A DNA stretch of 63,952 nt, filler included, from Candidatus Woesearchaeota archaeon (GCA_047603125.1; 6 parts of 6 records of this genome joined end to end with filler, not necessarily neighbours in it); one strand, 5' to 3'; numbered from the whole stretch's first letter, positions 23,223 to 49,932 are shown. Program-made: numbers and translations. Notes: generated by a model not told the origin, from the letters alone.

Positions 23223-23298
23223 AGTTAGGGGTGCTTAAGAGGTTTTTTATAAAATTATGGGTCTTTTTTACAAGAAAATAGTCGACGACATTAATTTC

Positions 23299-23392
23299 GC
23301 ATAACTCGGCGATTTCACGACAGCTGTCAAGTTTGCAAAATCAGAGCTGCATGAATCGCTCTGATTTTTGATTTTACGCCAAGGAGTTATGC
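23299..23392 (+). repeat. Structured intergenic element, full copy (94 nt)
   Basis: GCATAACTC-GGCG...GACAGCTGTC...GCTGCATGAATC...CGCC-AAG-GAGTTATGC. Confidence 0.9.
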
Positions 23393-23458
23393 TTTTCTTT
23401 TGCCGCTAACTAAAACATCGATATATTTATATAATAAAAATATCAAAAAACACGTACA

Positions 23459-26052: not shown

Positions 26053-26207
26053 ATCCCTGTCATTTTTTATCACCAATTATAGTTTTTTAAACTATAATAA
26101 AAAATGCGGGGTTTAACATACAATCATAGTTGGACGTTTTTTGTGCGTCCTTATTAATGTTCGTATTTTTTGGAAAAAACTCTCGTTTCATCTACTAATT
26201 GCTTTTC

Positions 26208-26248
26208 AAAAAAGAGCACGCAGATCTGGCTGCAAGGTGCTCTTTTTT
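26208..26248 (+). repeat. Structured intergenic element, minimal copy
   Basis: AAAAAAGAGCAC-GCAG-ATCTGG-CTGC-AAG-GTGCTCTTTTTT. Confidence 0.7.
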
Positions 26249-26310
26249 CTTATTTTTTTAATGGAGTTAAAAACTCCGGATTTGTGTAAAAAATCGAATT
26301 TTTATTTTAC

Positions 26311-26405
26311 AGCAATATTACGATTAATTCAGACTCGCGTATCTTGCCGACGAGGCGCTGCATAAATCGCGCCATGTCGTAATGAGGCATCAAGGTAATA
26401 TTGCT
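26311..26405 (+). repeat. Structured intergenic element, divergent full copy (95 nt)
   Basis: AGCAATATTAC-GAT...GCTGCATAAATCGC...ATC-AAG-GTAATATTGCT. Confidence 0.8.
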
Positions 26406-26477
26406 TACTTCTTTTAATTTTTACACAAACCCAAAACCTCCTTAACATTTTTAAAGACTAGCGAATGTGCCATTTCT

Positions 26478-28667
26478 ATGTCCTATGAATTAATCATTAC
26501 AGAGAAACCATCCGCAGCTGAAAAAATTGCACACGCCCTTGCAGATCTCAAACCAGATAAAAAACGCGAGGGACAAGTAAGTTATTATGAAATTACACAT
26601 AATAAAAAACCAATTATTGTTGCCTGTGCAGTAGGACATTTATACACAGTAACTGAAAAAGAAAAATCTAAAGGGTGGACATATCCAATTTTTGATTTGA
26701 AATGGGAACAATCCTCCAAAGTCAATAAAGGTTCTGCGTTTACTTCTAAATATGTTTCTGTTATTAAAAAATTAGCAAAGGATGCAAATGAGTTTACGGT
26801 TGCAACAGATTATGATATTGAGGGGGAAGTGATTGGTTTAATGTGTGTTCAGTTTGCGTGTAAGCAAAAAGATGCAAATAGGATGAAGTTTTCAACTTTA
26901 ACAAAGCCTGATTTAATAAAAGCATATCAACAAAAAGCAAAAACACTTAATTGGGGACAAGCCCTTGCAGGAAAAACACGTCATGAACTGGATTGGTATT
27001 ATGGTATTAATTTAAGTCGTGCATTGTCTCTTGCGATTCGAAGTGCTGGTCAGTTTAAAATTCTCTCTTCTGGTCGTGTACAAGGTCCAGCATTAAAAAT
27101 CTTAGTCGACAAGGAAAAAGAAATTTCAGCCTTTGTCAGTGAACCTTATTGGCAGATTGAACTCTATTCAAAAAAAAACAATCAAGAAATTATTGCATTA
27201 TATACGGAAGAGAAAGTATTTGATAAAGAAAAAGCACAAAACGTGTATCAAACATGTAAAGATGCAAAAGAAGCAATTGTCCAAGACGTTCAAACGACAC
27301 AATTTAAACAGCAACCTCCAACTCCTTTTGATTTAACATCGCTTCAAGTAGAAAACCACCGTGTTCATAAGATAACGCCAAAAGTTACGCTCTCACTTGC
27401 TCAAGATTTATACATTAATGGATTTATTTCTTATCCGCGAACATCTTCACAAAAATTGCCAAAAGAAATTGGTTATACAAAAATTCTCAAAGAACTTTCT
27501 CGCCAGAGTCAATATATGGAATTGACAAATAAGCTATTAGCGCAAAAGACGCTTAAACCAAACGAAGGAAAAAAAACCGATGACGCGCACCCGGCAATTT
27601 ATCCGACTGGTCTTGTTCCTCAAAAGTTAACCGCACAACACCTCAAACTCTATGATTTAATCGTTCGCCGATTTTTAGCAGTGTTTGGTGAGCCTGCAAC
27701 GCGTGAGCGTATGAGTGCAAAATTAGAGGCAAATACAATTTCATTTTTAACAAAAGGAGTGCATACAGTTGAAAAAGGATGGCACGAATATTATGGGAAG
27801 TTTGCAATGTTTGAGGAAACAACATTGCCTGATTTAACAGTTGGTGAGAAATTACCGGTAGTAAAAATTGAAAAACAAGAAAAACAAACAAAGCCACCAA
27901 AACGATATACTGCTTCTTCTATTATTAAAGAATTAGAAAAGCAAAATTTAGGGACAAAGGCAACACGCTCAGCAATTGTTGAAAATTTATATGATCGGGG
28001 ATATGTGAATGAAAAATCAATACAGGCAACTGATATTGGTATAAAAACATGTGATATTTTGCAACAATATTGTCCGAAAATAATTGATCCGGCACTAACT
28101 CGTCAATTTGAAGATGAAATGGAGGATATTCGAACGCAAAAAACAACGCCTCAAAAAGTACTTGATCATTCAAAAGAGATTTTAAGTGACATCTTAACAG
28201 ATTTTAAGAAAAAAGAAAAGGATATTGGAAAGGCACTCTTGAATGCAACACGAGAAACTGTAGAGCAATTAACAACGATTGGACCTTGTCCTGTTTGTAA
28301 AGAAGGGACACTAAAAATAAAACGTGGGAAATTTGGTGAGTTCATTGCATGTGATAACTATCCTGACTGTAAGTCAACATATTCAATTCCAAAGGGGGTA
28401 AAGGCAAAACCAACTGAGCAAGTAAGCGAACAAGGAGATCCTATTGTAGAATTTGTTAAAGCTCGTTCAAAACCGGAGATGGTGACATTGACTGCACAAA
28501 TGCTTGGTTCAAAAAAAGTTGAAAAACTTAAAAAGAAATGTCCTACTTGTAAAACAGGTGATCTGCTCAAGCGCTCTTCGTATCGGGGAGAATTTATCGG
28601 TTGCTCAAATTATCCTAAATGTACGTATACTGAACAGATTGCAGTAGAGAAAAAAAAAGATGAATAG
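26478..28667 (+). CDS. topA: DNA topoisomerase IA
   Basis: ITEKPS, ATDYDIEG TOPRIM, SGRVQ, ISYPRT catalytic Tyr, two C4 zinc ribbons. Confidence 0.97.
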   Translation: MSYELIITEKPSAAEKIAHALADLKPDKKREGQVSYYEITHNKKPIIVACAVGHLYTVTEKEKSKGWTYPIFDLKWEQSSKVNKGSAFTSKYVSVIKKLAKDANEFTVATDYDIEGEVIGLMCVQFACKQKDANRMKFSTLTKPDLIKAYQQKAKTLNWGQALAGKTRHELDWYYGINLSRALSLAIRSAGQFKILSSGRVQGPALKILVDKEKEISAFVSEPYWQIELYSKKNNQEIIALYTEEKVFDKEKAQNVYQTCKDAKEAIVQDVQTTQFKQQPPTPFDLTSLQVENHRVHKITPKVTLSLAQDLYINGFISYPRTSSQKLPKEIGYTKILKELSRQSQYMELTNKLLAQKTLKPNEGKKTDDAHPAIYPTGLVPQKLTAQHLKLYDLIVRRFLAVFGEPATRERMSAKLEANTISFLTKGVHTVEKGWHEYYGKFAMFEETTLPDLTVGEKLPVVKIEKQEKQTKPPKRYTASSIIKELEKQNLGTKATRSAIVENLYDRGYVNEKSIQATDIGIKTCDILQQYCPKIIDPALTRQFEDEMEDIRTQKTTPQKVLDHSKEILSDILTDFKKKEKDIGKALLNATRETVEQLTTIGPCPVCKEGTLKIKRGKFGEFIACDNYPDCKSTYSIPKGVKAKPTEQVSEQGDPIVEFVKARSKPEMVTLTAQMLGSKKVEKLKKKCPTCKTGDLLKRSSYRGEFIGCSNYPKCTYTEQIAVEKKKDE

Positions 28668-29160
28668 AACACAATCAATTATAGGCATTTGGCATGTGCT
28701 AATAATTCTCGGTTTATTGATTCCTTTTATGATTGCGGTAATGGTGACTTCTTTTTATGTCTATTCAGTGTATAGTCCCCTCTGCGGTTGTCACATTCCA
28801 CTGTGGCTTATTATTATTGTTTTATCTATTAGTGGAATTCTTATTGGCACATTAACTTATTATATTTTAACAAAAAATCGTCTTAAAGAGAAAAGTATGG
28901 ATGCACAAGCAATTTTTTCCTTGCTGAGTCTGCTCGACAAAACACAACTTCTTATCTTAAAAGAACTTGTTTTGGCAAAAGGGCAGCTGACACAGAGTAC
29001 ACTACGAAAAAAAACTCAGGTGGACAAAGTGAAGCTGTCTCGTGCACTTAAGCAATTAGAGCAAAAAGAGATTATACAAAAGACTCAGAAAGGGATGACA
29101 AATACTATCAAATTAGACCTCCAAATTCTTACTGTTTTAGAGGGTTGTTTCAATAAATGA
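28660..29160 (+). CDS. Membrane-anchored winged-HTH regulator
   Basis: Two TM helices with a CGCH loop; C-terminal wHTH (QSTLRKKT...KVKLSRALKQLE). Confidence 0.8.
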   Translation: MNRTQSIIGIWHVLIILGLLIPFMIAVMVTSFYVYSVYSPLCGCHIPLWLIIIVLSISGILIGTLTYYILTKNRLKEKSMDAQAIFSLLSLLDKTQLLILKELVLAKGQLTQSTLRKKTQVDKVKLSRALKQLEQKEIIQKTQKGMTNTIKLDLQILTVLEGCFNK

Positions 29161-29198
29161 AACAAATATTTAAAAAGGGTTGTGACATACTCCCATAC

Positions 29199-30089
29199 AT
29201 GAAAAAGATATTGTTGCTTGCGTTATTCCTTTTGCTTGCGACTCAGCTAAGTTTTGCAGACCAAGAGATCATTGATGTTCCTCTTATTGGTGAATATGAT
29301 GTTTCCCAGGTACCACTGCTTGTGAGTACAATATTGATTGCAGCAGTGGACGGGGTGAATCCGTGTTCCATTTGGGTTTTATTATTCTTATTAGGTATGG
29401 TTCTTCATACTGGTTCTCGAAGAAAAATTTTACTTGTTGGTTCAGTATTTTTGCTTGTTACGGCAACAATATATGGAGTTTTTATTGCAGGCGTTTTTAC
29501 TATTTTTACCTTTATGAATCAAATTCAATGGATTATTTATATTGTCGCAGGTCTCGCGTTACTATTTGGAATTGTGAATATAAAAGATTATTTTTGGTTT
29601 AAAAAAGGTTTGAGTTTTACTATTTCTGACAAATATAAACCGAAACTTTTCAAACAAGCAAGAGGTCTGATAAAAACTGATAACACTTGGTTTTTAATAG
29701 GTGCTACAATCGTTATGGCTGCAGGAATTGCTATTATTGAATTACCATGTACGGCAGGTTTACCTGTTATTTGGTCTGGCTTACTTGCAAGTTCACAAGA
29801 GCAGATTCCGTTTTTATTATACTTATTTGTGTATGTCTTTATTTATTTACTTATTGAAATAATCATACTGGTAAGTGTTGTGATAACACTGCGCTCGATA
29901 AAAATGGATGAATTTAAAGGTCGCGCGCTCAAACTTATTGGAGGGGTTTTGATTACAGCCTTAGCAATTATTTTGCTTTGGGATAGAACACTCATGTATA
30001 GTATTGGTTCAGTATTTGCTATTATTTTTGGAGCTTTACTCATAAGTATCCTTATTATTGCAGGAGAGATACTTTGGAGGAGAAGATGA
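29199..30089 (+). CDS. CcdA/DsbD-beta-like transmembrane disulfide transporter
   Basis: About 7 TM helices plus signal-like N-terminus; two Pro-Cys motifs (DGVNPCS, IELPCTAG). Confidence 0.8.
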   Translation: MKKILLLALFLLLATQLSFADQEIIDVPLIGEYDVSQVPLLVSTILIAAVDGVNPCSIWVLLFLLGMVLHTGSRRKILLVGSVFLLVTATIYGVFIAGVFTIFTFMNQIQWIIYIVAGLALLFGIVNIKDYFWFKKGLSFTISDKYKPKLFKQARGLIKTDNTWFLIGATIVMAAGIAIIELPCTAGLPVIWSGLLASSQEQIPFLLYLFVYVFIYLLIEIIILVSVVITLRSIKMDEFKGRALKLIGGVLITALAIILLWDRTLMYSIGSVFAIIFGALLISILIIAGEILWRRR

Positions 30090-30454
30090 GTTTACCAAAA
30101 GATCGATTATATAATACAGATAGTACTTGGGTTATTGAAAAAGATGGTGTTGCGACACTAGGAATGGTTCAAGAGTCAGTTGACAAAGCACAAGATATAG
30201 TGTTTATTAATTTACCAAAAAAGAATGATCAATTAACAATTGGTAAAACATATGTCAGTGTGGAGTCGGTTAAATGGTCGGGAGAATTAGAGAGTCCGGT
30301 CTCGGGAGAGGTTGTTCAAGTAAATGATGTGCTCTTTGATCAGCCAGAACTTTTAAATCAAGATTCATACATAAACTGGATAGTCAAGGTTCGTGTAGAA
30401 AAAAAAGATACCTTATATGAGGCAAACGATGTACAAAATAAATATACAAAATAA
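30086..30454 (+). CDS. Glycine cleavage H-like lipoyl carrier protein
   Basis: VESVK lipoyl-lysine motif, SPVSGEVVQVN, PELLNQDSY..WI. Confidence 0.9.
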   Translation: MSLPKDRLYNTDSTWVIEKDGVATLGMVQESVDKAQDIVFINLPKKNDQLTIGKTYVSVESVKWSGELESPVSGEVVQVNDVLFDQPELLNQDSYINWIVKVRVEKKDTLYEANDVQNKYTK

Positions 30455-30464
30455 AAAACAAACA

Positions 30465-30914
30465 ATGCGTTTTCACTTATTCTTATTACTTGTAATAAGC
30501 GTTTTTGTCATGAGTGCATGCCAGTCACCAACTGGAAATGTTACAGGCAATCAACAAAATGATTATAATCTGACATCCTTGATAGAGACAATGGAGCAAA
30601 ATGAAGACAAGGTACAAGTGTATTACTTCTATGGTGAAACATGTCCTTTCTGTCAACAGCAAAGACCTGTGTTAGAACAATTAGAGCAAGAATATGACAT
30701 TCAAGTACACTGGTTTGAAGTATATTCGAGCCGTGAAAATCAGCAATTGTGGAGAGAAGTAGCAGATATTTATCAAACACAAGCGCGAGGAGTTCCCATG
30801 ACATTTATTGGAGACGAGTATTGGAGTGGATTTAATAATAGAGTTGCACAAGAGCTTGAGCAAAAAATACGTGAGTGTTTAGATGTAGGATGTGAGGATT
30901 TACTACAACAATGA
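30465..30914 (+). CDS. Thioredoxin/glutaredoxin-fold lipoprotein
   Basis: Signal with MSAC lipobox, CPFC active site, GVP cis-Pro motif. Confidence 0.85.
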   Translation: MRFHLFLLLVISVFVMSACQSPTGNVTGNQQNDYNLTSLIETMEQNEDKVQVYYFYGETCPFCQQQRPVLEQLEQEYDIQVHWFEVYSSRENQQLWREVADIYQTQARGVPMTFIGDEYWSGFNNRVAQELEQKIRECLDVGCEDLLQQ

Positions 30915-32140
30915 ATATAGTCATAGTTGGAGGTTCAACGGCAGGAGTTCAAGTAGCTCGAATGCTTCGATTCTATGATAAGAAATCTACAATAACAATT
31001 GTTGATTCTTCCCCACATACACAATATAGCCCTTGTAGTCTTCCGTATTTTATAGAAGGAAAAATTTCATACAAGGATTTATTTGTTTATGAGCAGTATG
31101 ATCAAGACACTATTTTGCTGCATAATAACACGACAATTACAAAAATAGAACCAAAACATGTAATCGGTGTGGATGCGCAGGGTAAAGAAAAGCTATTTTC
31201 GTATGATGTGCTGGTTATTGCAACAGGAAGTAGACCAAAACAAATACGTTGTCAAGGAAAAGCGCCACTTTTTTTAAAGACACTTGATGATGCAAAAAAA
31301 ATTAAAGATTCCTCGGGACCGTTTGTTATTTTAGGGGCAGGATATATTGGTTGTGAACTTGCTGCAAGTTTAGCAAAAAAGGGTGAGACTGTGCAGTTAG
31401 TGGAGATGCAAAACCAAGTATTGGCGCAATTGGATGCAGATATGAGTCAAATTGTTTTTTCTTATTTACAATCGTTAGGGGTAGAAATTTTTTTAGAAAC
31501 TTCGCTGGACTCTTTTCAAATAGACAAACAGACACTTATTCAAACTTGTGGCTTTGAGCCAAATACCCAGCTTCTTGAAGATAATAATTTTCCAATTCAG
31601 ACAAATGAGTTTTTACAAGTAAAAGAGAATATTTATGTGGTTGGTGATGTGGCAAAAGTCAAAAATAAACAAACACAAAAGTATGAGCATTCTTTTTTTG
31701 CAAATACTGCGATGATTCAAGCAAATATGGTAGTTTCTAATATTGTTGGAAAAAAACAAATATACCCTGGATTTTTGACAAATGCAATAAGTAAAATTGG
31801 TGATTTAGATGTTGGAATAGTTGGAACACGAACAGAAGAGGCATGTGTTTTTGCAAAATACAAGGGTTTTGATGCATATGTGAGTTGTGGTGGAAAAGAG
31901 TTGACAGTCAAACTCTTCGTAAATAAGGATGGAGTAATACAGCATGCCCAAATAATTGGATATAAGGAAGTTAGTGGAAGGCTAAATTGGATTGCGCACT
32001 GTATTGAGCATAGTCACACACTTGATGATCTTATTCGAGTCCAAACATGTTATAATCCCTGTGTTGCAACTATTCTTGACCCGGTGATTGAAGCTGCAAA
32101 AATTTGTCGCAAAAAACTCCTTTTATTACAGAAGAGGTAG
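30911..32140 (+). CDS. FAD/NAD(P)H oxidoreductase, Nox/CoA-disulfide reductase class
   Basis: VGGSTAG, SPCSLPY single redox Cys, ATGS, GAGYIGCE, VGD, C-terminal CYNP. Confidence 0.88.
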   Translation: MNIVIVGGSTAGVQVARMLRFYDKKSTITIVDSSPHTQYSPCSLPYFIEGKISYKDLFVYEQYDQDTILLHNNTTITKIEPKHVIGVDAQGKEKLFSYDVLVIATGSRPKQIRCQGKAPLFLKTLDDAKKIKDSSGPFVILGAGYIGCELAASLAKKGETVQLVEMQNQVLAQLDADMSQIVFSYLQSLGVEIFLETSLDSFQIDKQTLIQTCGFEPNTQLLEDNNFPIQTNEFLQVKENIYVVGDVAKVKNKQTQKYEHSFFANTAMIQANMVVSNIVGKKQIYPGFLTNAISKIGDLDVGIVGTRTEEACVFAKYKGFDAYVSCGGKELTVKLFVNKDGVIQHAQIIGYKEVSGRLNWIAHCIEHSHTLDDLIRVQTCYNPCVATILDPVIEAAKICRKKLLLLQKR

Positions 32141-32149
32141 GATTTTAAA

Positions 32150-32932
32150 ATGAGTGAAATTCCTCTCTATGTTGTTCAAAGACAAGGAATTTCTGCGTAC
32201 AATTTACATATGCTACAAAGAGATTTAACACAATATCTTGCGCAATACAAGCCTGGTACTGGCGTTGTTGGTTTTTTTGAATGTGAATCCACAATTTCTT
32301 TTGGAAATGCGACTCGAAGAAATAGTTTGAAACCGGGCTCTCAAACAGATGTGGATAGTCGTATTGAGAGTTTTTTTCAGACTGATTTATATTTTCCCGA
32401 TAGTGGTTTGATTCCTTTTATAAAGTCGGAAAGGGGTGGTGGTTCGACATATCTTGGTCCCGGTCAAAGAACTATTTTTTTTATACTGCCCATGGTAGAA
32501 GAAACTGTCGCGGGTTTTGATAGTTTTGTGAATTCTTTTTTAGAAACGACTGTAAAGGATGCTACCAAAAATGATCAAATTATTTCAGTTCCAAAAAAAG
32601 ATTTAATCTATGTAGATGAGCATGGTCTCGAATATAAGCTTGCTTCAAAAGGGTTAAGCTTTAAATTATATAATAATAGACTCTATTCTCAATTTGGTGT
32701 TTCAATTCATGTTCTTCGAGACAGTGTTGAAGGATTTGCAAGAGTGAACCCTTGTGGTTTTGAAAATTTACTTGTGACTTCGTGCCAGGATTTGAATTCA
32801 TTAGTAACTATGGAGAGCTTTGATACTGGCGCATATAACTATTTATCAAAACATTTTTCTAAACTTATCAGACCTGGGAGTCCAGCTAATTATATGCAAA
32901 AAAATGTGGATAACTATCTTTCGGGTCTATAA
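32150..32932 (+). CDS. LipB-like octanoyl/lipoyl transferase
   Basis: ERGGGSTYLGPGQ, KLASKG and VNPCG motifs. Confidence 0.8.
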   Translation: MSEIPLYVVQRQGISAYNLHMLQRDLTQYLAQYKPGTGVVGFFECESTISFGNATRRNSLKPGSQTDVDSRIESFFQTDLYFPDSGLIPFIKSERGGGSTYLGPGQRTIFFILPMVEETVAGFDSFVNSFLETTVKDATKNDQIISVPKKDLIYVDEHGLEYKLASKGLSFKLYNNRLYSQFGVSIHVLRDSVEGFARVNPCGFENLLVTSCQDLNSLVTMESFDTGAYNYLSKHFSKLIRPGSPANYMQKNVDNYLSGL

Positions 32933-33652
32933 TTGGTATATCCATTCTTTTTGAGCGTATTGCTGTGAGAATTGATGTGCAAGTTCTAAGTCTTCTTTCG
33001 TCCATGTGTATGGTGAAACTTTAAAACCTTTTGTAAGGCTGTTCTCTACTATGGAAATTGCTTTTTTGAATGATATATTTGAGAGCTCAGATATGCATGA
33101 GATTTTCTTTTTCTTTTCTGGAAGGCCTTTGTTATAATCGTTTTCTGGTCGTAGATATTTATTCATAAGGTCCTTTCTTTTTTTATACAAAAGTGTTCCC
33201 ATCACATAGACAACGCCTTGTCTTTGTGTTATTGCGCTTCCTGATATTTTTCCTTTTGCTGTAATAATGTCATTTATAGGTTTAAATTGGCTGTTAATAC
33301 CCATCTGCGCGAGGGCTTCTCTTATTTTTGCTGTTGCAAATTCATGGATGTCTTGAATATTTTCTGGAAAAAAAGTTCTTGGCCCGACAATTCCCCAACA
33401 AATATCATCGGGTGTCAGTACGACTGCTCCTCCTCCAGATTCTCTTCGTATGATGAGTGTTTCATTTATGGCTTCTTGGTTTAGAACATCTTTGATTTTT
33501 TGATTCACACCTATGCTGACGCAAATTTGATTCCATCCCGTCAGAGAAAAGTAGACTGCTGGTTTTTTTTTGACTTTTTCGATAAGAACTTGATTTAATC
33601 CAAGTCTTGTATAAGGGGAATAATATTGAAATGGTATGAGATAATAATCCAT
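32927..33652 (-). CDS. Lipoate-protein ligase family (LplA/LipM catalytic domain only)
   Basis: RRESGGGAV, INDI, KISGSA, GTLLY motifs. Confidence 0.88.
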   Translation of the reverse strand: MDYYLIPFQYYSPYTRLGLNQVLIEKVKKKPAVYFSLTGWNQICVSIGVNQKIKDVLNQEAINETLIIRRESGGGAVVLTPDDICWGIVGPRTFFPENIQDIHEFATAKIREALAQMGINSQFKPINDIITAKGKISGSAITQRQGVVYVMGTLLYKKRKDLMNKYLRPENDYNKGLPEKKKKISCISELSNISFKKAISIVENSLTKGFKVSPYTWTKEDLELAHQFSQQYAQKEWIYQL

Positions 33653-33711
33653 ATTTTTAGTGTTTTTTTAGCATTTAAATGTATTGTGTAAATAGTTTAT
33701 GAGATGAGAAA

Positions 33712-33806
33712 ATTGTAATGCGGTAATTTTGAACAGTTGTTCACTTTGCGAATTTCTCCGGCGCAAAGCTTTGCGAAATTCTGATTAAATGTCGAGCCAT
33801 TCTAAT
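33712..33806 (+). repeat. Structured intergenic element, degenerate full copy (95 nt)
   Basis: Shares TTTTGAACAG and TTGCGAATTTCTCCGGCGCA...GCGAAATTCT with 9937-10032; outer stem decayed. Confidence 0.85.
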
Positions 33807-33874
33807 TTTTATTGTCTTTAATGAAAATATCTAAAATCGTTCAATTTATATACCTAGTGTTCTCTTCTTTTTGT

Positions 33875-34264
33875 ATGGGATACGGGAAGATACTCTTGCT
33901 TTTAGTTGTTGCTATATTATTTGTTGCAACATTGGTTGCAATATTATATGATTCTTCACAAGAACCGATATTAGTATCAATACCTTCCCAGACATTTAGT
34001 GATTTTCAGGCTCAGCATCCTGAGATTGTAGTCATAGATCTTCGTACACCACAAGAATACTCACAAGGCCATGTTCCAGGTTCTATCAATATTGATTTTT
34101 ATCAAAGTGATTTTGAGCAAAGGTTAGATCAGTTGGATAAAAAACAAACATATGTCATATATTGTCGAAGTGGTAATCGTTCGAAGCAGGCCTTAAGAAT
34201 TATGGAATCGTTGGGATTTCTCACTGTCTACGAGCTTCATGAAGGCATTAGTCAGTGTTGTTAG
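33875..34264 (+). CDS. Membrane-anchored rhodanese-domain protein
   Basis: N-terminal TM helix; IDLRTPQEY, GHVPGS, YCRSGNRS motifs. Confidence 0.9.
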   Translation: MGYGKILLLLVVAILFVATLVAILYDSSQEPILVSIPSQTFSDFQAQHPEIVVIDLRTPQEYSQGHVPGSINIDFYQSDFEQRLDQLDKKQTYVIYCRSGNRSKQALRIMESLGFLTVYELHEGISQCC

Positions 34265-34826
34265 TCTCAAATGTTTTATTTACTTCAAGAACGTCCATAT
34301 TGTCAAAACCATTGAATTCCAGTATATTCACACAGGCATTTTTTTGTTCTAAATTGTCATCATAATCGTGGATGTTTCGTATTGTTTGTATGATTGCTTT
34401 ATTAATTCCGCTATGTGCAACAAGCAAAAGCGTATCATTTTTATGTTTGAAATAAAGATATTCGAGGAGAATTTTTGCTCGATTCATGAGTTTATCAAAT
34501 GTTTCTGCACCTATTGGTGGATTTGTTCTCCAATCGGGTCGTACTGATATTGGTTTTCCCTCAAGCTCTCCTAAATATGCCTCACGTAATAGCGGATTTA
34601 GATGAAGGGGTGTGGTTGGATATTGTTCTTGTAAGATAAGTGCGGTTTGATGTGCTCGCTGCAAGTCACTAGAATAAATTGCATCAAAATTCTTATCTTT
34701 TAACCCCTGTGAAGTACAGCAAACTTGTTCTTTGCCTTTTTGAGTCAATTCGCTTGGTAAGTAACCTTGCCAAAATCCATTAATATTACCCTGGGATTGG
34801 CCGTGTCGTACAAGGTAGAGCTTCAT
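34248..34826 (-). CDS. Histidine phosphatase family protein
   Basis: RHG, SSDLQRA, VAHSG motifs. Confidence 0.9.
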   Translation of the reverse strand: MKLYLVRHGQSQGNINGFWQGYLPSELTQKGKEQVCCTSQGLKDKNFDAIYSSDLQRAHQTALILQEQYPTTPLHLNPLLREAYLGELEGKPISVRPDWRTNPPIGAETFDKLMNRAKILLEYLYFKHKNDTLLLVAHSGINKAIIQTIRNIHDYDDNLEQKNACVNILEFNGFDNMDVLEVNKTFETNNTD

Positions 34827-34875
34827 AATAGTAAAAAACACAAGACTTTTTAAAAAGGTATTGTTGTGAATGCAT

Positions 34876-35361
34876 ATGAAATACTTACTTGTCGTCGGAG
34901 TACAACAAATGGCTGTACAACCACATTCTTCGAGATTTGTTCTGCTCAGTCACACACTTGAGCGAATAAATGTACTTATTCGTTTGCTTCGCAAAAAAGA
35001 GTACACTGTCGTTTTCTCTCAATATATTAGTGAGCAAATGGGAGAAACAAGTTGGGATGCCCAAATTGCAGCTGATATTCGTGAGGGAGATGCTGTTATT
35101 TCACATATGGGTGCAAATCCATTCTTTAAAAGTCAATTACAAACTGAGCTTGCGCTTGCATCAACAGTTATTATTTGTGGTGCTCATACAAATATTGCAG
35201 TGCGTGACGCTGCATGCACATTGTCTGATATGGGAAAACAAGTTGTAGTGGTCAGTGATTGTTGTTCAGCTAGTAGTCCAAATGTTCATCAATTTACTCT
35301 AGAAGATCTTTCTCATTCTCGAAAGAATGTGCGCGTTTGTTCATTGCAAGAATTGAGTTAA
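34876..35361 (+). CDS. Isochorismatase-like protein, catalytic residues apparently altered
   Basis: Fold motifs NPFFKS, ICGAHTNIAV, VVSDCC; the usual Asp, Lys and Cys appear as G, H and A. Confidence 0.7.
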   Translation: MKYLLVVGVQQMAVQPHSSRFVLLSHTLERINVLIRLLRKKEYTVVFSQYISEQMGETSWDAQIAADIREGDAVISHMGANPFFKSQLQTELALASTVIICGAHTNIAVRDAACTLSDMGKQVVVVSDCCSASSPNVHQFTLEDLSHSRKNVRVCSLQELS

Positions 35362-35457
35362 ATCAAGGATTTGCAGATTCTACAACTAATCTATTACTCG
35401 GTTTTTTCACTTTTTTAAACCAAAACTTATATATATTGCTAGATATTTTCGGTCTGG

Positions 35458-36399
35458 ATGAGCTTTTCCAAACATTTTCAAAACTATGTGACAAAGGATC
35501 CTTTTACTGATATTATCGGGCTTGCAAAAGTGAAGTCTCAACTGCTTTCTGCGTTATTAACCGATCGTCATGTTCTTATTATGGGGCAACCAGGTATTGG
35601 AAAAACAACATTGGCCAAAAATGTTGCAAAACTGCTTCCCGATGTTGGTGGGAAAAAGGGCTTGGATCGATTTATTCGTATACAGGGCTCGCCGGATTTG
35701 ACTGTAGAGGATTTAATTGGTGATATTGACCCACAAAAAGCATTGGAGTTTGGTCCTTTGAGTAAAGAAGCATTTGTTCCTGGAAAAATTTTTCAGGCAA
35801 ATGAAGGGATTTTATTTTTTGATGAAGTGAATCGTTGCTCAGAAAAGCTGCAAAACGCGTTACTTCAAGCACTCGAAGAAGGAGTTGCAACGATTGGTTC
35901 CTATGATGTAGACTTACCTGCTAATTTTTTATTTATAGGAACACTCAACCCTCAGGATACATCAACTGAGAAACTCAGTGATGCGTTTTTGGATCGTTTT
36001 GATGTCATTGAGATGAGTTTTCCTGAAACTCCTCAAGACGAAGTGAAAATTTTGCAAACACATGGTTTGAAATTATCTGTTGATATGCCACCAAAATTGG
36101 TTCAGGCAATAGTTGATTTTGTTCGCTCGTTTCGAGATCCGTCCCGAGTAAAAAAAATGCCAGGTGTTCGTGCTAGTTTAGGTTTATATGAGAGAGCACA
36201 AGCAAATGCGCTTCTTAATGGCAATAAAGAAGTCACCGTGTATGATATTCAACAAGCAATCCCTTCTGTTATTACGCACAGAATTGAACTAAAACCCTCT
36301 CTTAAATATTCAACATCGCTGGACAAATATGTGATGCAAGAATTTGAGCGTATTATTTCAGGAGCAAATATACAATCGGCAAAAGGTGATTTGACCTGA
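35458..36399 (+). CDS. MoxR/ChlI-type AAA+ ATPase
   Basis: GQPGIGKT Walker A, FFDEVNR Walker B, TLNP sensor, LDRF Arg finger. Confidence 0.9.
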   Translation: MSFSKHFQNYVTKDPFTDIIGLAKVKSQLLSALLTDRHVLIMGQPGIGKTTLAKNVAKLLPDVGGKKGLDRFIRIQGSPDLTVEDLIGDIDPQKALEFGPLSKEAFVPGKIFQANEGILFFDEVNRCSEKLQNALLQALEEGVATIGSYDVDLPANFLFIGTLNPQDTSTEKLSDAFLDRFDVIEMSFPETPQDEVKILQTHGLKLSVDMPPKLVQAIVDFVRSFRDPSRVKKMPGVRASLGLYERAQANALLNGNKEVTVYDIQQAIPSVITHRIELKPSLKYSTSLDKYVMQEFERIISGANIQSAKGDLT

Positions 36400-37594
36400 C
36401 GGGAGTGCAGGAGAAGATGAGGCAGAGCCTGATATTGATAAAATAGATGAGCCGTTAATTGAAAATACCTCTGATCAAAACAACCCTCGGGGTGGAGACC
36501 CGACAGGAAATTCATTAGGAACAGAACCGGTTGATCAAGAACGCCGTGATGGTCAATTTGTTGAAGAAATGTACAACCAAGGCATGTCTTCGTTTGTCCC
36601 TGATTCGCTTTTTTCTCAAATGACGACGCAATTTTCTCAAACACGTCAACAATTTGGTGATTCCATCCTGCAATATGCAACTGGTTATGACGCAGATTAT
36701 TTACAAAGAAATATTAAGATTCCTGAGTTTCAAAAACAATTACAAAAACAAATGAATCAAAAAGCTCGCGAGCTTGAAGATAAGGATTTTATTGATGATG
36801 AGGGAAGTCTGACACAAACGGCAAAACAGGCAGCATTACTCGAGCTTTACATTCGTGAACTTGATGCGCTGCAGGCAAAAGGTTTTTTTGGTTCACACAC
36901 ACACAATATCGATCATGTGTATGGAGAAAGACAAGATGTTCGTCCATACAAAAAAGGTGACCGATTTCGAGATGTTTCTATAAAAAAAACAGCCCACACT
37001 GCTTTGCGCAGACTTCATACATCCATTCAACCGGGAGACTTTCGTATTTCGACTCGTCAATCTCGTGGGGATATTACGGTTTTATATGCAATTGATGCCT
37101 CAAGTTCGATGAGAGGAGAAAAGATAGCTGCTGCAAAACGCGCAGGGATGGCTCTTGCGTATGCAGCAATACAAAATAATGATTCTGTTGGTCTGATTGT
37201 CTTTTCTGATACGGTTGTCACTCATACGCAAATCACAAAAGACTTTCAAGAATTTGCACATGCGCTTGTAAATGTAAAAGCACAAAAGCAAACAGATCTT
37301 GCATGTGCAATTGATAAATCTATAGAATTATTTGAAAATACACAAGGTTCAAAACATGTCATTATTATTACAGATGCCGAAGGTACTGTTGGCGATGATC
37401 CAAAAAAGCGTGCAATGGATGCTGCATACATGGCAAATGAACATGACATTTCTCTCTCTATTGTCGGTGTTGGCTTAGAAGATGATGCATTTGCAAGGCA
37501 GGTGGCTGAAGTGGGAAAAGGCAAACTCTATATTGCAAAAAATATTGAAAAAATAGATTTACTTGTCTTGCAAGATTATGATCAGCTTAGTTGA
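36398..37594 (+). CDS. Acidic linker plus VWA domain (ChlD-like C-terminal part), probably reached by +1 frameshift; first ATG at 36569
   Basis: MIDAS DASSS...T...ITD; frame open from 36395 with no ATG/GTG/TTG before 36569. Confidence 0.8.
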   Translation, partial: DGSAGEDEAEPDIDKIDEPLIENTSDQNNPRGGDPTGNSLGTEPVDQERRDGQFVEEMYNQGMSSFVPDSLFSQMTTQFSQTRQQFGDSILQYATGYDADYLQRNIKIPEFQKQLQKQMNQKARELEDKDFIDDEGSLTQTAKQAALLELYIRELDALQAKGFFGSHTHNIDHVYGERQDVRPYKKGDRFRDVSIKKTAHTALRRLHTSIQPGDFRISTRQSRGDITVLYAIDASSSMRGEKIAAAKRAGMALAYAAIQNNDSVGLIVFSDTVVTHTQITKDFQEFAHALVNVKAQKQTDLACAIDKSIELFENTQGSKHVIIITDAEGTVGDDPKKRAMDAAYMANEHDISLSIVGVGLEDDAFARQVAEVGKGKLYIAKNIEKIDLLVLQDYDQLS

Positions 37595-37979
37595 CAAGAA
37601 GGGAATGAATGTTTTCTAATTTATCGTTGTGGTTTTTTCGCTCAACGATTCGCTCTTTTTTATTATAGCGTGGAATAATATGAAGATGCACATGTGCGAC
37701 TTCTTGACCTGCAATTGGTCCATCATTAATTTCAAAGTTAAATGATTTGCAGTTGAGTTTTCTTTCAAGCATGTGTGCAATTTCTGAGGCAATGGGCATC
37801 ATTTTTCGTAGATATGGTTCAGGTAAGTCGATAATACTTGCCACTTCTATTTTTGGTATCAAAAGTGTATGCCCTTTCGTATTTGGATGTGCATCAAGTA
37901 TTGCAATGAACTGTTTATCTTCATAGAGAATATGTGCAGGGATTTCTTTATCTATAATTTTTGTAAAAATGGAAGCCAT
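37587..37979 (-). CDS. HIT family hydrolase
   Basis: SIFTKII, GHTLLIPK, HVHLHIIPR motifs. Confidence 0.93.
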   Translation of the reverse strand: MASIFTKIIDKEIPAHILYEDKQFIAILDAHPNTKGHTLLIPKIEVASIIDLPEPYLRKMMPIASEIAHMLERKLNCKSFNFEINDGPIAGQEVAHVHLHIIPRYNKKERIVERKNHNDKLENIHSLLVN

Positions 37980-38020
37980 GTAGTAAGAGTAATGTTTTAA
38001 CTTTATAAATATTGCTTCTA

Positions 38021-38081
38021 TTTAGTTAGCGGTAAAAGAAAAGCATAACTCCTTGGCGTGAAACCAAAAATCAGAGTGATT
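38021..38081 (-). repeat. Structured element, 3' half plus shared flank, truncated at contig end
   Basis: Reverse complement is near-identical to 23354-23414. Confidence 0.85.
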
Positions 38082-41976: not shown

Positions 41977-42465
41977 ATGCCCAAAGATGATATTGGATTT
42001 GCACCACTACGATATCGTGGTTTATGCGATTTAGAAAAAATTTATAGGACTACTGTAAAGTGGATGAAACAAAATAATTTCAAAGTCTTTCAAAATTCTT
42101 ACAAAGATAAAGTTTCAGGCCCAGGTGTGAGTGAAATTGAAATAAAATTTGAATCGAAATTAAAAGTGGATGAATATCATCGTTGCTTGTTTAAATTTGT
42201 ACTCAAAACATGGGATACACAAAAAGTGCAAACTGAAGATGGAAAAATGCTCTATAATGGACGAATAGACATTAACATCAAAGGAAGCATTGAAACAGAC
42301 TGGCAAGGAGCCTATGATGGCAAGACCACGCTGCGAGATTTAATGGGCAAAGTCGTCTATAATTTGAAAAAAAACGATCCCGATCAATATTATGAAGATT
42401 GGTTTCGCGAGCGCATTTATGAATTACAAGAACAAATTAAACAGATTATAGGTATTCAAACATGA
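41977..42465 (+). CDS. Hypothetical protein, paralog 1 of 3
   Basis: 162 aa; LRYRGLCD...GRIDINIKG. Confidence 0.75.
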   Translation: MPKDDIGFAPLRYRGLCDLEKIYRTTVKWMKQNNFKVFQNSYKDKVSGPGVSEIEIKFESKLKVDEYHRCLFKFVLKTWDTQKVQTEDGKMLYNGRIDINIKGSIETDWQGAYDGKTTLRDLMGKVVYNLKKNDPDQYYEDWFRERIYELQEQIKQIIGIQT

Positions 42466-42953
42466 GTGAGAAAAAAGTACTTGTTCCCCACATGCAACTC
42501 ACGCATAAGGGCACACTGGACTGTAACAGCATAGAGCACACGATACTAAAATCTCTAAAAAAAAGAGATTATCAACTTGATGACCAGTCTTATGATATAG
42601 AACAGACCCCAGATGGACTAAATCAAGCAATCACCTACACGTTTGTAAAACAAGACACAAAATATGGTATTTCTAAAATAACAATCACAAGTTCATTTAC
42701 GCATCTCAAACCCGTCGTATTAAAAACGGATGTCCAAACGACATTATTTTCAGGAGAATTCACATTAACATTTAAAGGACAAACCATTACAGAACATGAA
42801 GGAAGAATTGCACATAAACCATGGCTTTATTTTGAAAAAATGATTTTAAGTAAATTCGTCTCACGATCTTTTTTTCCAAGACCTGGAACGGACATTGCAG
42901 ATACAATTTTTGATACAAAAAAACAAGTGGAGCATTTACTAAAACATGAGTGA
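42462..42953 (+). CDS. Hypothetical protein, paralog 2 of 3
   Basis: 163 aa; LTHKGTLD...GEFTLTFKG; ATGA overlap with the previous gene. Confidence 0.75.
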   Translation: MSEKKVLVPHMQLTHKGTLDCNSIEHTILKSLKKRDYQLDDQSYDIEQTPDGLNQAITYTFVKQDTKYGISKITITSSFTHLKPVVLKTDVQTTLFSGEFTLTFKGQTITEHEGRIAHKPWLYFEKMILSKFVSRSFFPRPGTDIADTIFDTKKQVEHLLKHE

Positions 42954-43443
42954 AGAATTTCGCATAAATGAACGAGAACTTTCTTTTACAGGGTATTTTC
43001 ACATTAAAGAAATTAAAAAAATAATAGAAACACATATTGCTCAAAAAGGATATGATAAGCAAGAGATTGTTCATGAAGTTCAGCACAGAAAAGACGGCAA
43101 TTACACGTTTATCAAATTATATCCCATACGCCGTTTTACTGATGAGGAAACCTTTACACTCGAGCTCACCTATGGCTTTGGTAGTATTACCCAAGAAAAA
43201 TTAAAAGGAACAGTTTATGATAAAGGAACATTTTTTATTTCGATGGGAGGCACGCTCGATGTGGATACCGCAGGCAAATGGTCTTCATTTTATGATGGAC
43301 TCGGGCTGCTTATTCGTTTTATAGGAAATATGTTTGTATTCAAAGAACATCATCAAAGCCTCATTGACGATTGCAAACAAGACAGGGATGAGCTCTATCA
43401 AGCACTTCTGAGTTATTGTAATGGGCAAAAAATAAACCGATAA
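42946..43443 (+). CDS. Hypothetical protein, paralog 3 of 3
   Basis: 165 aa; LSFTGYFH...GTFFISMGG; 8-nt overlap with the previous gene. Confidence 0.75.
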   Translation: MSEEFRINERELSFTGYFHIKEIKKIIETHIAQKGYDKQEIVHEVQHRKDGNYTFIKLYPIRRFTDEETFTLELTYGFGSITQEKLKGTVYDKGTFFISMGGTLDVDTAGKWSSFYDGLGLLIRFIGNMFVFKEHHQSLIDDCKQDRDELYQALLSYCNGQKINR

Positions 43444-44316: not shown

Positions 44317-44412
44317 ATTATAATGCGGCGATTTTTGAACAGCGGTTCATCTTGCGAATTTCTCCGGTGCCAAGCTTCGCGAAATCCTGATTATGCGTCA
44401 AGGCATTATAAT
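44317..44412 (+). repeat. Structured intergenic element, full copy (96 nt)
   Basis: ATTATAATGC-GGCG...CGTC-AAG-GCATTATAAT. Confidence 0.9.
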
Positions 44413-44475
44413 TTGTTACTGTTTAAAACCACTTTTATCTGTGATTCATACTACAAGTAATATCAATAATGCTCC

Positions 44476-49646: not shown

Positions 49647-49932
49647 TCATATATTCCAAAAAAAAAAAATATAAAAACACAAGATTAACCTAAAATCAGT
49701 ATTTAAAAAAGAAAACCAGAAACAAGTGCTGTGTCAGATAAACCAGTACCAGTTTAGAAAAAATCCAACAAAAAACTTACTTTTAAGAAAAGAATGGCAT
49801 TTCATCTAGCAGAAAGCTTTGCTTCGAGTGTATTTTTTCATACGCTCATAGTTCGAAAACTTCATTTTTGCTTCGTTAAAGCAATTTTCTTCTTTGTGAC
49901 TCTTTACGCATTCGCCAAAACAGCGTTTAACT

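Follow-up and report, generated by a model that had tools for sequence, protein, structure and literature searches.

The window analyzed here is a 63,952-nucleotide stretch of DNA, filler included, from a Candidatus Woesearchaeota archaeon (GCA_047603125.1), made by joining contigs of a 70-contig assembly of about 1.1 Mb. The locus of interest lies on contig C11 (window positions 26053-38081), and because the window is a concatenation, the absence of genes beyond the limits of this contig is uninformative. The features of this locus described below are on the forward strand. An ORF of 313 aa (35458..36399), with the motifs of a MoxR/ChlI-like AAA+ ATPase, would be the short, termination product of the locus. 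It ends in AAA GGT GAT TTG ACC TGA C (36382-36400), which can be parsed into an internal element resembling a Shine-Dalgarno (SD) sequence, AGGTGAT (36384..36390); a 3-nt spacer, TTG (36391..36393), which would be the E-site codon when the stop occupies the A site; a candidate P-site shift codon, ACC (36394..36396), which would re-pair to CCT after a +1 movement; and the stop TGA followed by C (36397..36400), a weak termination context. The TG of the spacer and the next A form a TGA (36392-36394) that closes the +1 frame. Past it, this frame is open from 36395 up to 37594, and runs for 58 codons without any ATG, GTG or TTG, the earliest being ATG 36569. The +1 frame encodes an acidic, start-less linker (36398..36523; pLDDT <50 over model residues 1-42), a conserved helical middle domain with a weak winged-helix-like character that contains the annotated but internal ATG 36569 (36524..36880), a finger-like insert ahead of the VWA core, as in NorD, with a match to DUF58 (36881..37066), and a VWA domain with an intact MIDAS (DxSxS at 37094-37108, T and D) and the final stop (37067..37594). 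The predicted structural model shows the same order of disordered linker, helical domain, finger and VWA core. Conceptual joining of the two frames by a +1 shift at ACC yields an ATPase-VWA product of 711 aa. The initial annotation had described this junction, the closing and opening of the +1 frame and its start-less stretch, and had placed the only possible shift at ACC-UGA-C; all of this was reproduced by our reading of the window.

It had also proposed that AGGTGAT is complementary to the typical 16S 3' end and lies 3 nt before the P-site codon, which holds against the genome's own 16S rRNA. The 3' end of the latter (contig C7) is GGATCACCTCCT, the element is the complement of its AUCACCU tail, and the duplex between them has a computed energy of -9.2 kcal/mol. 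A genome-wide survey recovered 296 candidate sites with a shifty codon and a stop, 12 of which have an SD at the corresponding place. The junction is unlikely to be a chance occurrence because it is the strongest of these 12 and the only one that terminates a long ORF. With a 70-contig assembly, and with fused relatives known (see below), one might suspect an assembly error or a fusion gene decayed to a pseudogene. However, contigs from two public sequencing runs (covering 36296-36460 and 36280-36700) span the junction without a gap or a base difference; these are the two bridging runs of four compared, and the best-matching run may be the source of the window itself. The contig of one non-bridging run ends 8 bases past the stop, and one RNA run offered a single contig at 36501-36727, outside the junction. 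Further, the catalytic motifs are intact in both halves of the protein, and the same offset and motif recur at 177 loci from 75 families. The suspicion of an assembly error or pseudogene is hence effectively refuted, in agreement with the indel check suggested by the initial annotation.

The orthologous loci were chosen by their score to the protein of the window: 202 were fetched, with high scores favored, and removal of 22 duplicates and of one that lacked the ATPase at a contig end left 179, among which kin are not independent. The VWA frame is +1 relative to the ATPase stop in 177 of these distinct loci and -1 in two; none is a plain fusion, and the offset that the initial annotation wished to see checked is thus widely retained. 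When a single locus is taken per family, the +1 offset is seen in 74 of 75, with an SD in 70 of those 74 and a C after the stop in 47. The offset is kept across a G+C range of 25-63%, and the named relatives are mostly titled Woesearchaeota or Nanoarchaeota; clusters in the ESM Atlas give a consistent picture, and the organism probably belongs to the Woesearchaeales. Some records titled 'uncultured Methanosarcinales' were placed among these relatives on the tree, and we regard that title as unreliable. At E 0.001 the VWA part has matches, weak paralogues included, in 57 of the 61 near genomes; at 1e-20 it has them in 167 of 301 genomes of the phylum. No in-frame fusion was found among the 150 matches listed (no open frame >557 aa); a further 18 phylum matches lay outside those 150, and five of their genomes were checked. 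The five genomes without the VWA part that were checked proved to be without the ATPase as well. In family f56, from the same order, the VWA part was unmatched in all 36 sampled genomes, and the two that were checked also lack the ATPase.

Comparison of these loci points to a compact RNA signal around the stop. A match to the anti-SD that ends 3 nt before the last codon occurs at 166 of 177 loci, as opposed to 11 of 172 ends of the VWA frames and, for the ORF ends of the genome, 148 of 646. The pairing energy peaks sharply at that one position, and the sequence from -12 to -7 is GGTG(A/G)T. The last sense codon is CCC in 61, CTT in 46, CGG in 25, GGG in 20, CCG in 11 and ACC in 8 of the 177 loci, with six others seen once each. 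This six-codon set, from which the synonyms are excluded, ends the ATPase in 171 of 177 cases, while the controls use it in 11 of 172 (ends of the VWA frames) and 30 of 646 (ORF ends of the genome); as it was defined after inspection, synonymous choice provides the cleaner test. When the last residue is proline, CCC (61) and CCG (11) are used but never CCT or CCA, which make up 73% of the proline codons elsewhere in the same genes. Likewise, leucine is encoded by CTT in 46 of 47 cases (25% elsewhere in these genes), glycine by GGG in 20 of 20 (14%), arginine by CGG in 25 of 26 (6%) and threonine by ACC in 8 of 8 (16%). The glycine four codons upstream is GGT in 108 of 131 loci (19% elsewhere in genes), and position -8 is A or G, both of which can pair with U, in 171 of 175. 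These synonymous preferences at the last codon and the glycine, together with the purine at -8, argue that selection acts on the RNA rather than on the peptide. The stop itself is TGA in 89, TAG in 65 and TAA in 23 of the 177 loci, and is followed by C in 125; where the VWA frames of these loci end, C follows in 22 of 172. On a FastTree tree of 175 loci, the P-site codon has undergone at least 61 changes and yet keeps to the set, and the stop has undergone at least 52; although many deep branches are weak, this indicates that the codon restriction is not a single inherited accident. Two loci were left out of the counts of structure, start codons and position -8: L046, which has an internal stop further on, and L200, which contains Ns. 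Individual variants include five loci reading GG(G/T) TA(T/C) CTT TGA C, which end in the consensus of the bacterial prfB shift site; L076, in which the stop has shifted two codons downstream with SD and CCC retained; and L202, the most distant of the split loci, in which the SD is absent. The motif expected by the initial annotation, namely an SD and 3 nt followed by NCC-UGA, is accordingly conserved across 75 families in its SD, its 3-nt gap and its stop followed by C, but not in its NCC or UGA, which give way to six codons and three stops. The ACC of the window is a minority shift site, most being CCC and CTT.

Could the SD instead serve termination-reinitiation between two separate, translationally coupled genes? 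The start of the second gene would then be the GTG within GGTGAT (-11), an ATG or GTG at -8, or the methionine of a DKLM motif about 85 nt downstream. Indeed, 130 of 175 loci have a start-like codon at -11, with an open frame in 128 of them, the conserved methionine column is ATG in 131 of 173, and gene callers place the starts of many such VWA proteins at these codons. Intragenic SDs are also known to help reinitiation in archaea (PMC6728339), and the spacing of the SD at the junction is the commonest initiation spacing of this genome. Nevertheless, the -11 GTG runs into a TGA after two codons in both the window and L002, and 21 of 175 loci have no ATG, GTG or TTG anywhere between -29 and a conserved GKL. 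At -11, GTG is used 125 times and ATG no more than 5. An SD stands before the P-site codon in 161 of 175 loci as against 24 of 130 for the -11 codon and 19 of 131 for the conserved methionine, with 96 of 880 for internal methionines as a control; the absence of an SD is by itself a weak argument, since even the ATPase's own ATG is preceded by one in only 30 of 154 cases, and the weight lies on the positive signal before the P-site codon. The codons that the SD targets in the +1 frame are CCT, TTT, GGT and CGT, none of them a start, and overlaps of the ATGA or TGATG type (PMC6728339) would lead into the -1 frame, and 158 of 173 linkers are closed in that frame. Coupled genes would also leave both the six-codon set and the C after the stop unexplained, and the conserved methionine is internal in the natural fusions. 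In keeping with this, the VWA protein was not found to have a conserved start codon of its own preceded by an SD; orthologs with their own start were among the outcomes that the initial annotation had named as speaking against its reading. We consider coupled genes unlikely on these grounds; additional internal initiation at the -11 codon or the conserved methionine is possible.

The linker provides a further line of evidence. It is open in the +1 frame at all 177 +1 loci, and over 5050 codons has no stop in that frame, while the two remaining frames have 280 and 603. The distance from the stop to the conserved methionine takes 27 different lengths from 40 to 148 nt, every one of them in frame. 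Upstream of this methionine, an EExxGKL motif is conserved while its synonymous codons vary freely. Moreover, natural fusions read through the same region. Taken together, these features argue that the linker is translated. The fusions came from 32 long homologues of the ATPase, 24 of which are in-frame ATPase-VWA fusions of 683-818 aa matching both the ATPase and VWA parts, the remaining 8 being intein-bearing. Among the fusions are the cluster of Methanopyrus kandleri AAM01409.1 (818 aa) and a Woesearchaeota protein. The intein-bearing sequences (P0006-P0009, P0011, P0012, P0016 and P0017) have an intein with a LAGLIDADG endonuclease near ATPase residue 165. A search for fusions with the VWA part recovered none, but this search is insensitive, as the fusions were found via the ATPase homologues. 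In a tree rooted on Methanopyrus, which included 13 of the 24 fusions, the fusions are basal and the split genes derived. Two fused proteins, P0010 and P0018, are nested among the split loci; P0010 is the sister of the split locus L182 (support 1.0), and its alignment runs uninterrupted through the predicted shift point. Being a single record, P0010 could be an indel artefact.

A translated linker could also be reached by other routes of recoding, such as a hop in which the P-site codon skips the stop and lands on a matching linker codon, a shift by -2, or the loss of a base at the RNA level by polymerase slippage, a tiny intron or editing. In this regard, +1 re-pairing is poor for CGG and CCG, the codons of 36 loci, and the variable linker could conceal a landing site. 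Also pertinent are the two loci whose VWA part is at -1: L140 has a run of A that opens this frame, and resembles a published -1 site of the chelatase genes (PMC3711429, PMC9227772), and L013 has a run of G at its junction, TTG GGG TAA. They represent either real switches of the signal or homopolymer errors. Along with the fusions within the group, of which there are at least two, they mean that the signal is dispensable or else that these assemblies have indels. However, most junctions have no homopolymer run, and no conserved RNA structure was detected, either spanning the stop (mean z -0.32 over 88 loci) or following it (0.04), with a control at -0.16. Of three positions, the P-site codon agrees with the +1 codon on average at 1.73 and with the -2 codon at only 0.78. 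The fixed distance of the SD, the P-site codon and the stop context all point to a paused ribosome, and we see these other routes as improbable, somewhat more so than coupled genes.

Accordingly, the explanation that we favor, with a probability of roughly 0.87 on the strength of comparative sequence, is SD-assisted +1 ribosomal frameshifting at a shifty stop, by which a single locus would make both the 313-aa ATPase and the 711-aa ATPase-VWA protein. The initial annotation had proposed the same pair of products, and the comparison of loci supports it. As we envisage it, the ribosome finishing the ATPase would pause at the stop followed by C, and the 16S tail AUCACC would pair with GGTG(A/G)T abutting the E-site codon, as suggested by their complementarity and covariation. 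The P-site tRNA would then be displaced by one base, from CCC or ACC to CCT, from CTT to TTT, from GGG or CGG to GGT, or from CCG to CGT. Most ribosomes would probably terminate with aRF1 and release the 313-aa ATPase, while a minority would slip by +1 and append the linker, helical domain, finger and VWA domain to reach 711 aa. The aligned spacing of the SD to the 16S tail is 6 in 130 of the 160 junctions scored and 3 in another 23; a spacing of 6 is the commonest at initiation in this genome, which has GGTG 5 nt before the ATG at 25 starts. As this register is that of ordinary initiation and differs from that of prfB, a prfB-like 'compression' or tension on the mRNA is unsupported. During initiation in Pyrococcus, a AUCACCUCC duplex stands one unpaired base away from the E codon in a state termed relaxed (PMC7005279). 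The junction would lack this unpaired base until the +1 move, and we hypothesize that this might supply a modest driving force or cause a clash with the E-site tRNA.

A link with the tRNA complement was also considered. An AGU anticodon in tRNA-Thr is unusual for archaea. This genome (G000) has a clean 72-nt tRNA-Thr(AGU) (C56:3103-3174; L204), with no GGU tRNA called, and ACC is its rarest threonine codon (7.5%). With AGU and without GGU, the move from ACC to CCT would be nearly cost-free. In an insensitive survey, whose GGU pattern matched only 20 of 80 genomes, the AGU tRNA turned up in only 2 of the 80 (a third match was something else) and in 0 of the 7 other genomes with ACC; one genome, G031 (L205), has both AGU and GGU. 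Pro-CGG, Arg-CCG and Gly-CCC tRNAs were likewise uncalled in the genome of the window. A tRNA called as Ile(UAU) with an intron was noted at C39:32618-32725 of the same genome.

The signal has evident counterparts among known recoding systems. As in the bacterial prfB gene, where an internal SD, a stop and a following C accompany the +1 shift (PMC5009743, PMC3711429, PMC10798248), the SD ends 3 nt before the P-site codon, the stop would lie in the A site with C after it, the direction is +1 and there is no downstream structure. The prfB consensus CTT_TGA_C (PMC3711429) is itself present in 33 CTT-TGA loci. Unlike prfB, in which shifting is also possible without SD pairing (PMC10798248), this gene belongs to an archaeon and encodes an AAA+/VWA motor rather than a release factor; aRF1 is encoded elsewhere in the genome in one open 373-aa frame. 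Again in contrast to prfB, the shift would come at codon 313 and both products would fold as proteins; the P-site codon is one of six and each of the three stops occurs, the window having ACC in place of CUU-U; and the pairing would be with the AUCACC of the 16S tail rather than with its CCUCC half, at an aligned spacing of 6 versus 2. The RF2-style geometry put forward in the initial annotation is therefore right as to the 3-nt gap but not as to the pairing register, which differs by 4 nt. Shifty stops of the UCC-UGA, CCC-UGA and CCG-UGA-C types are known from antizyme and phages (PMC5009743), and the CCC-stop and CCG-stop sites, poorly re-pairing P-site codons among them, recall these. In eukaryotes there is no SD stimulator; conversely, nothing at the present loci suggests control by polyamines or a 3' pseudoknot. 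In terms of gene products there is a parallel with frameshifted chlD, where one gene likewise yields a ChlI-like ATPase as its short product and a protein of ATPase, linker and VWA as its long one, fused homologues exist and some carriers are without the large subunit (PMC3711429, PMC9227772). The published chlD signals are mostly -1, with A-rich slippery runs and downstream structure; +1 cases are said to exist, though the available parts of these papers do not give their signal (PMC3711429, PMC9227772). Unlike the -1 sites of chlD, the present loci are +1 in 177 of 179, have no structure and show an A run in L140 only. Also unlike chlD, they have their own helical middle domain, and the closest named fusion is the 818-aa protein of Methanopyrus kandleri (AAM01409.1).

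Both halves keep their catalytic motifs. In 164 full-length orthologues, the ATPase motifs are retained in 159 (Walker A), 164 (Walker B), 162 (sensor 1), 152 (Arg finger) and 154 (sensor 2) sequences, and the MIDAS residues D232, S234, S236, T298 and D325 are invariant in 47 sequences. The NorD chain 9qh8_G aligns with model residues 152-397 over 226 residues (Z 19.9, rmsd 4.7), the longest alignment among the 50 matches listed. For the middle domain, a structure search retrieved no clear solved match (best Z 5.6, rmsd 3.1, 83 aligned); 28 of the 50 matches listed are titled MarR, PadR, DtxR/MntR, HxlR, Sso10a or winged helix, and this weak resemblance in the predicted model is a lead only. 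An identity as a chelatase was considered and rejected: the ATPase scores at most 91.5 bits and three fusions 135-205, against a cut-off of 779. More generally, the AAA+/VWA family scores are 60-205 bits, compared to cut-offs of 467-779 for ChlI (TIGR02030), ChlD (TIGR02031) and cobaltochelatase (TIGR02442). CobN/ChlH (PF02514) was found in 0 of 61 genomes, 42 of them near-complete, with control matches in 5 of 14. The protein is not a chelatase; of the ChlI/ChlD-like subunits claimed by the initial annotation, what stands is the layout of AAA, acidic linker and VWA.

RuBisCO, considered as a client, was not found in this genome. The recurrent neighbor genes of the orthologous loci code for a metallophosphoesterase (73 loci), a wyosine radical-SAM enzyme (23), an unnamed ORF (21) and the CCA enzyme (11); none of these four is present at the locus of the window, and no client is indicated. 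The metallophosphoesterase lies mostly downstream (flanks of L118-L197), and RNA cyclase genes also recur. Elsewhere in the window, a glycine-cleavage H protein, a thioredoxin-like ORF, an FAD oxidoreductase and two lipoate-ligase-like genes are clustered at 30074-33652, in what is a reduced genome, and three tandem ORFs of 162-165 aa without a Pfam match occupy 41977-43443 (contig C12). Repeats of 60-175 bp at 23273-23449, 26054-26129, 26276-26433, 38020-38081, 44317-44422 and 49781-49932 are common to many other contigs, often at contig ends, and are possibly a small mobile element.

A functional analogy is offered by NorQD and CobST, which also combine a clade-7-type ATPase with a VWA partner bearing a MIDAS and a finger, and in which this finger enters the pore of the ATPase hexamer (PMC13036017; bioRxiv 10.64898/2026.10.09.757910). 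In those systems the ATPase and adaptor each have a gene of their own and the clients are known, whereas here the adaptor would be tethered to an ATPase subunit by the predicted recoding, with no linked client gene. By this analogy, the purpose of the shift would most likely be stoichiometry, in that the AAA+ hexamer would consist chiefly of the short form and carry roughly one VWA adaptor on a tether, the finger of which might thread the ring pore. The entry of the finger into the hexamer pore in NorQD and CobST explains why a minority long subunit would be useful. We would view the protein as a housekeeping remodelling motor and not a tetrapyrrole chelatase.

Both the production of two proteins from one chlD-like gene, to which the initial annotation had alluded (PMC3711429, PMC9227772), and the SD/shifty-stop design of prfB are already published. 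Their combination in archaea was not found in the papers available for searching; Antonov 2020, the main work on frameshifted chlD, may already list +1 signals. A 2021 review lists one demonstrated archaeal programmed frameshift, the -1 shift of fucA1, with a suggested case in the chelatase genes of Methanococcales and archaeal +1 shifting only in a halovirus, in the part available (PMC8211752). A recent preprint on Nanobdellota treats split genes as assembly frameshifts, and its available part names no chelatase or MoxR gene (10.64898/2026.05.13.725050). Going further, it is about an even bet that we are dealing with an order-wide archaeal cassette with an origin separate from that of prfB, in a gene that had formerly been fused, driven by AUCACC with any of six codons and three stops, its output sensitive to aRF1 and setting the ratio of ATPase to adaptor in a near-universal Woesearchaeota motor. 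Within the same proposal, the client would be a nucleic acid or ribonucleoprotein rather than a metal cofactor, as suggested by the winged-helix-like middle domain.

Finally, if this last proposal is true, this would be the first cellular archaeal +1 programmed frameshift with a defined stimulator, and the 177 sites would amount to a ready-made natural mutagenesis. A short, portable and conserved +1 signal makes it testable whether archaeal ribosomes pair their anti-SD with mRNA inside a gene during elongation, and which P-site codons and stops permit a +1 slip with aRF1. It would also correct the annotation of over half of the sampled Nanobdellota genomes (the 167 of 301 with the VWA part), in which the gene is currently called as two proteins with arbitrary starts, and would draw attention to a conserved, uncharacterised motor of organisms whose genomes are very small.
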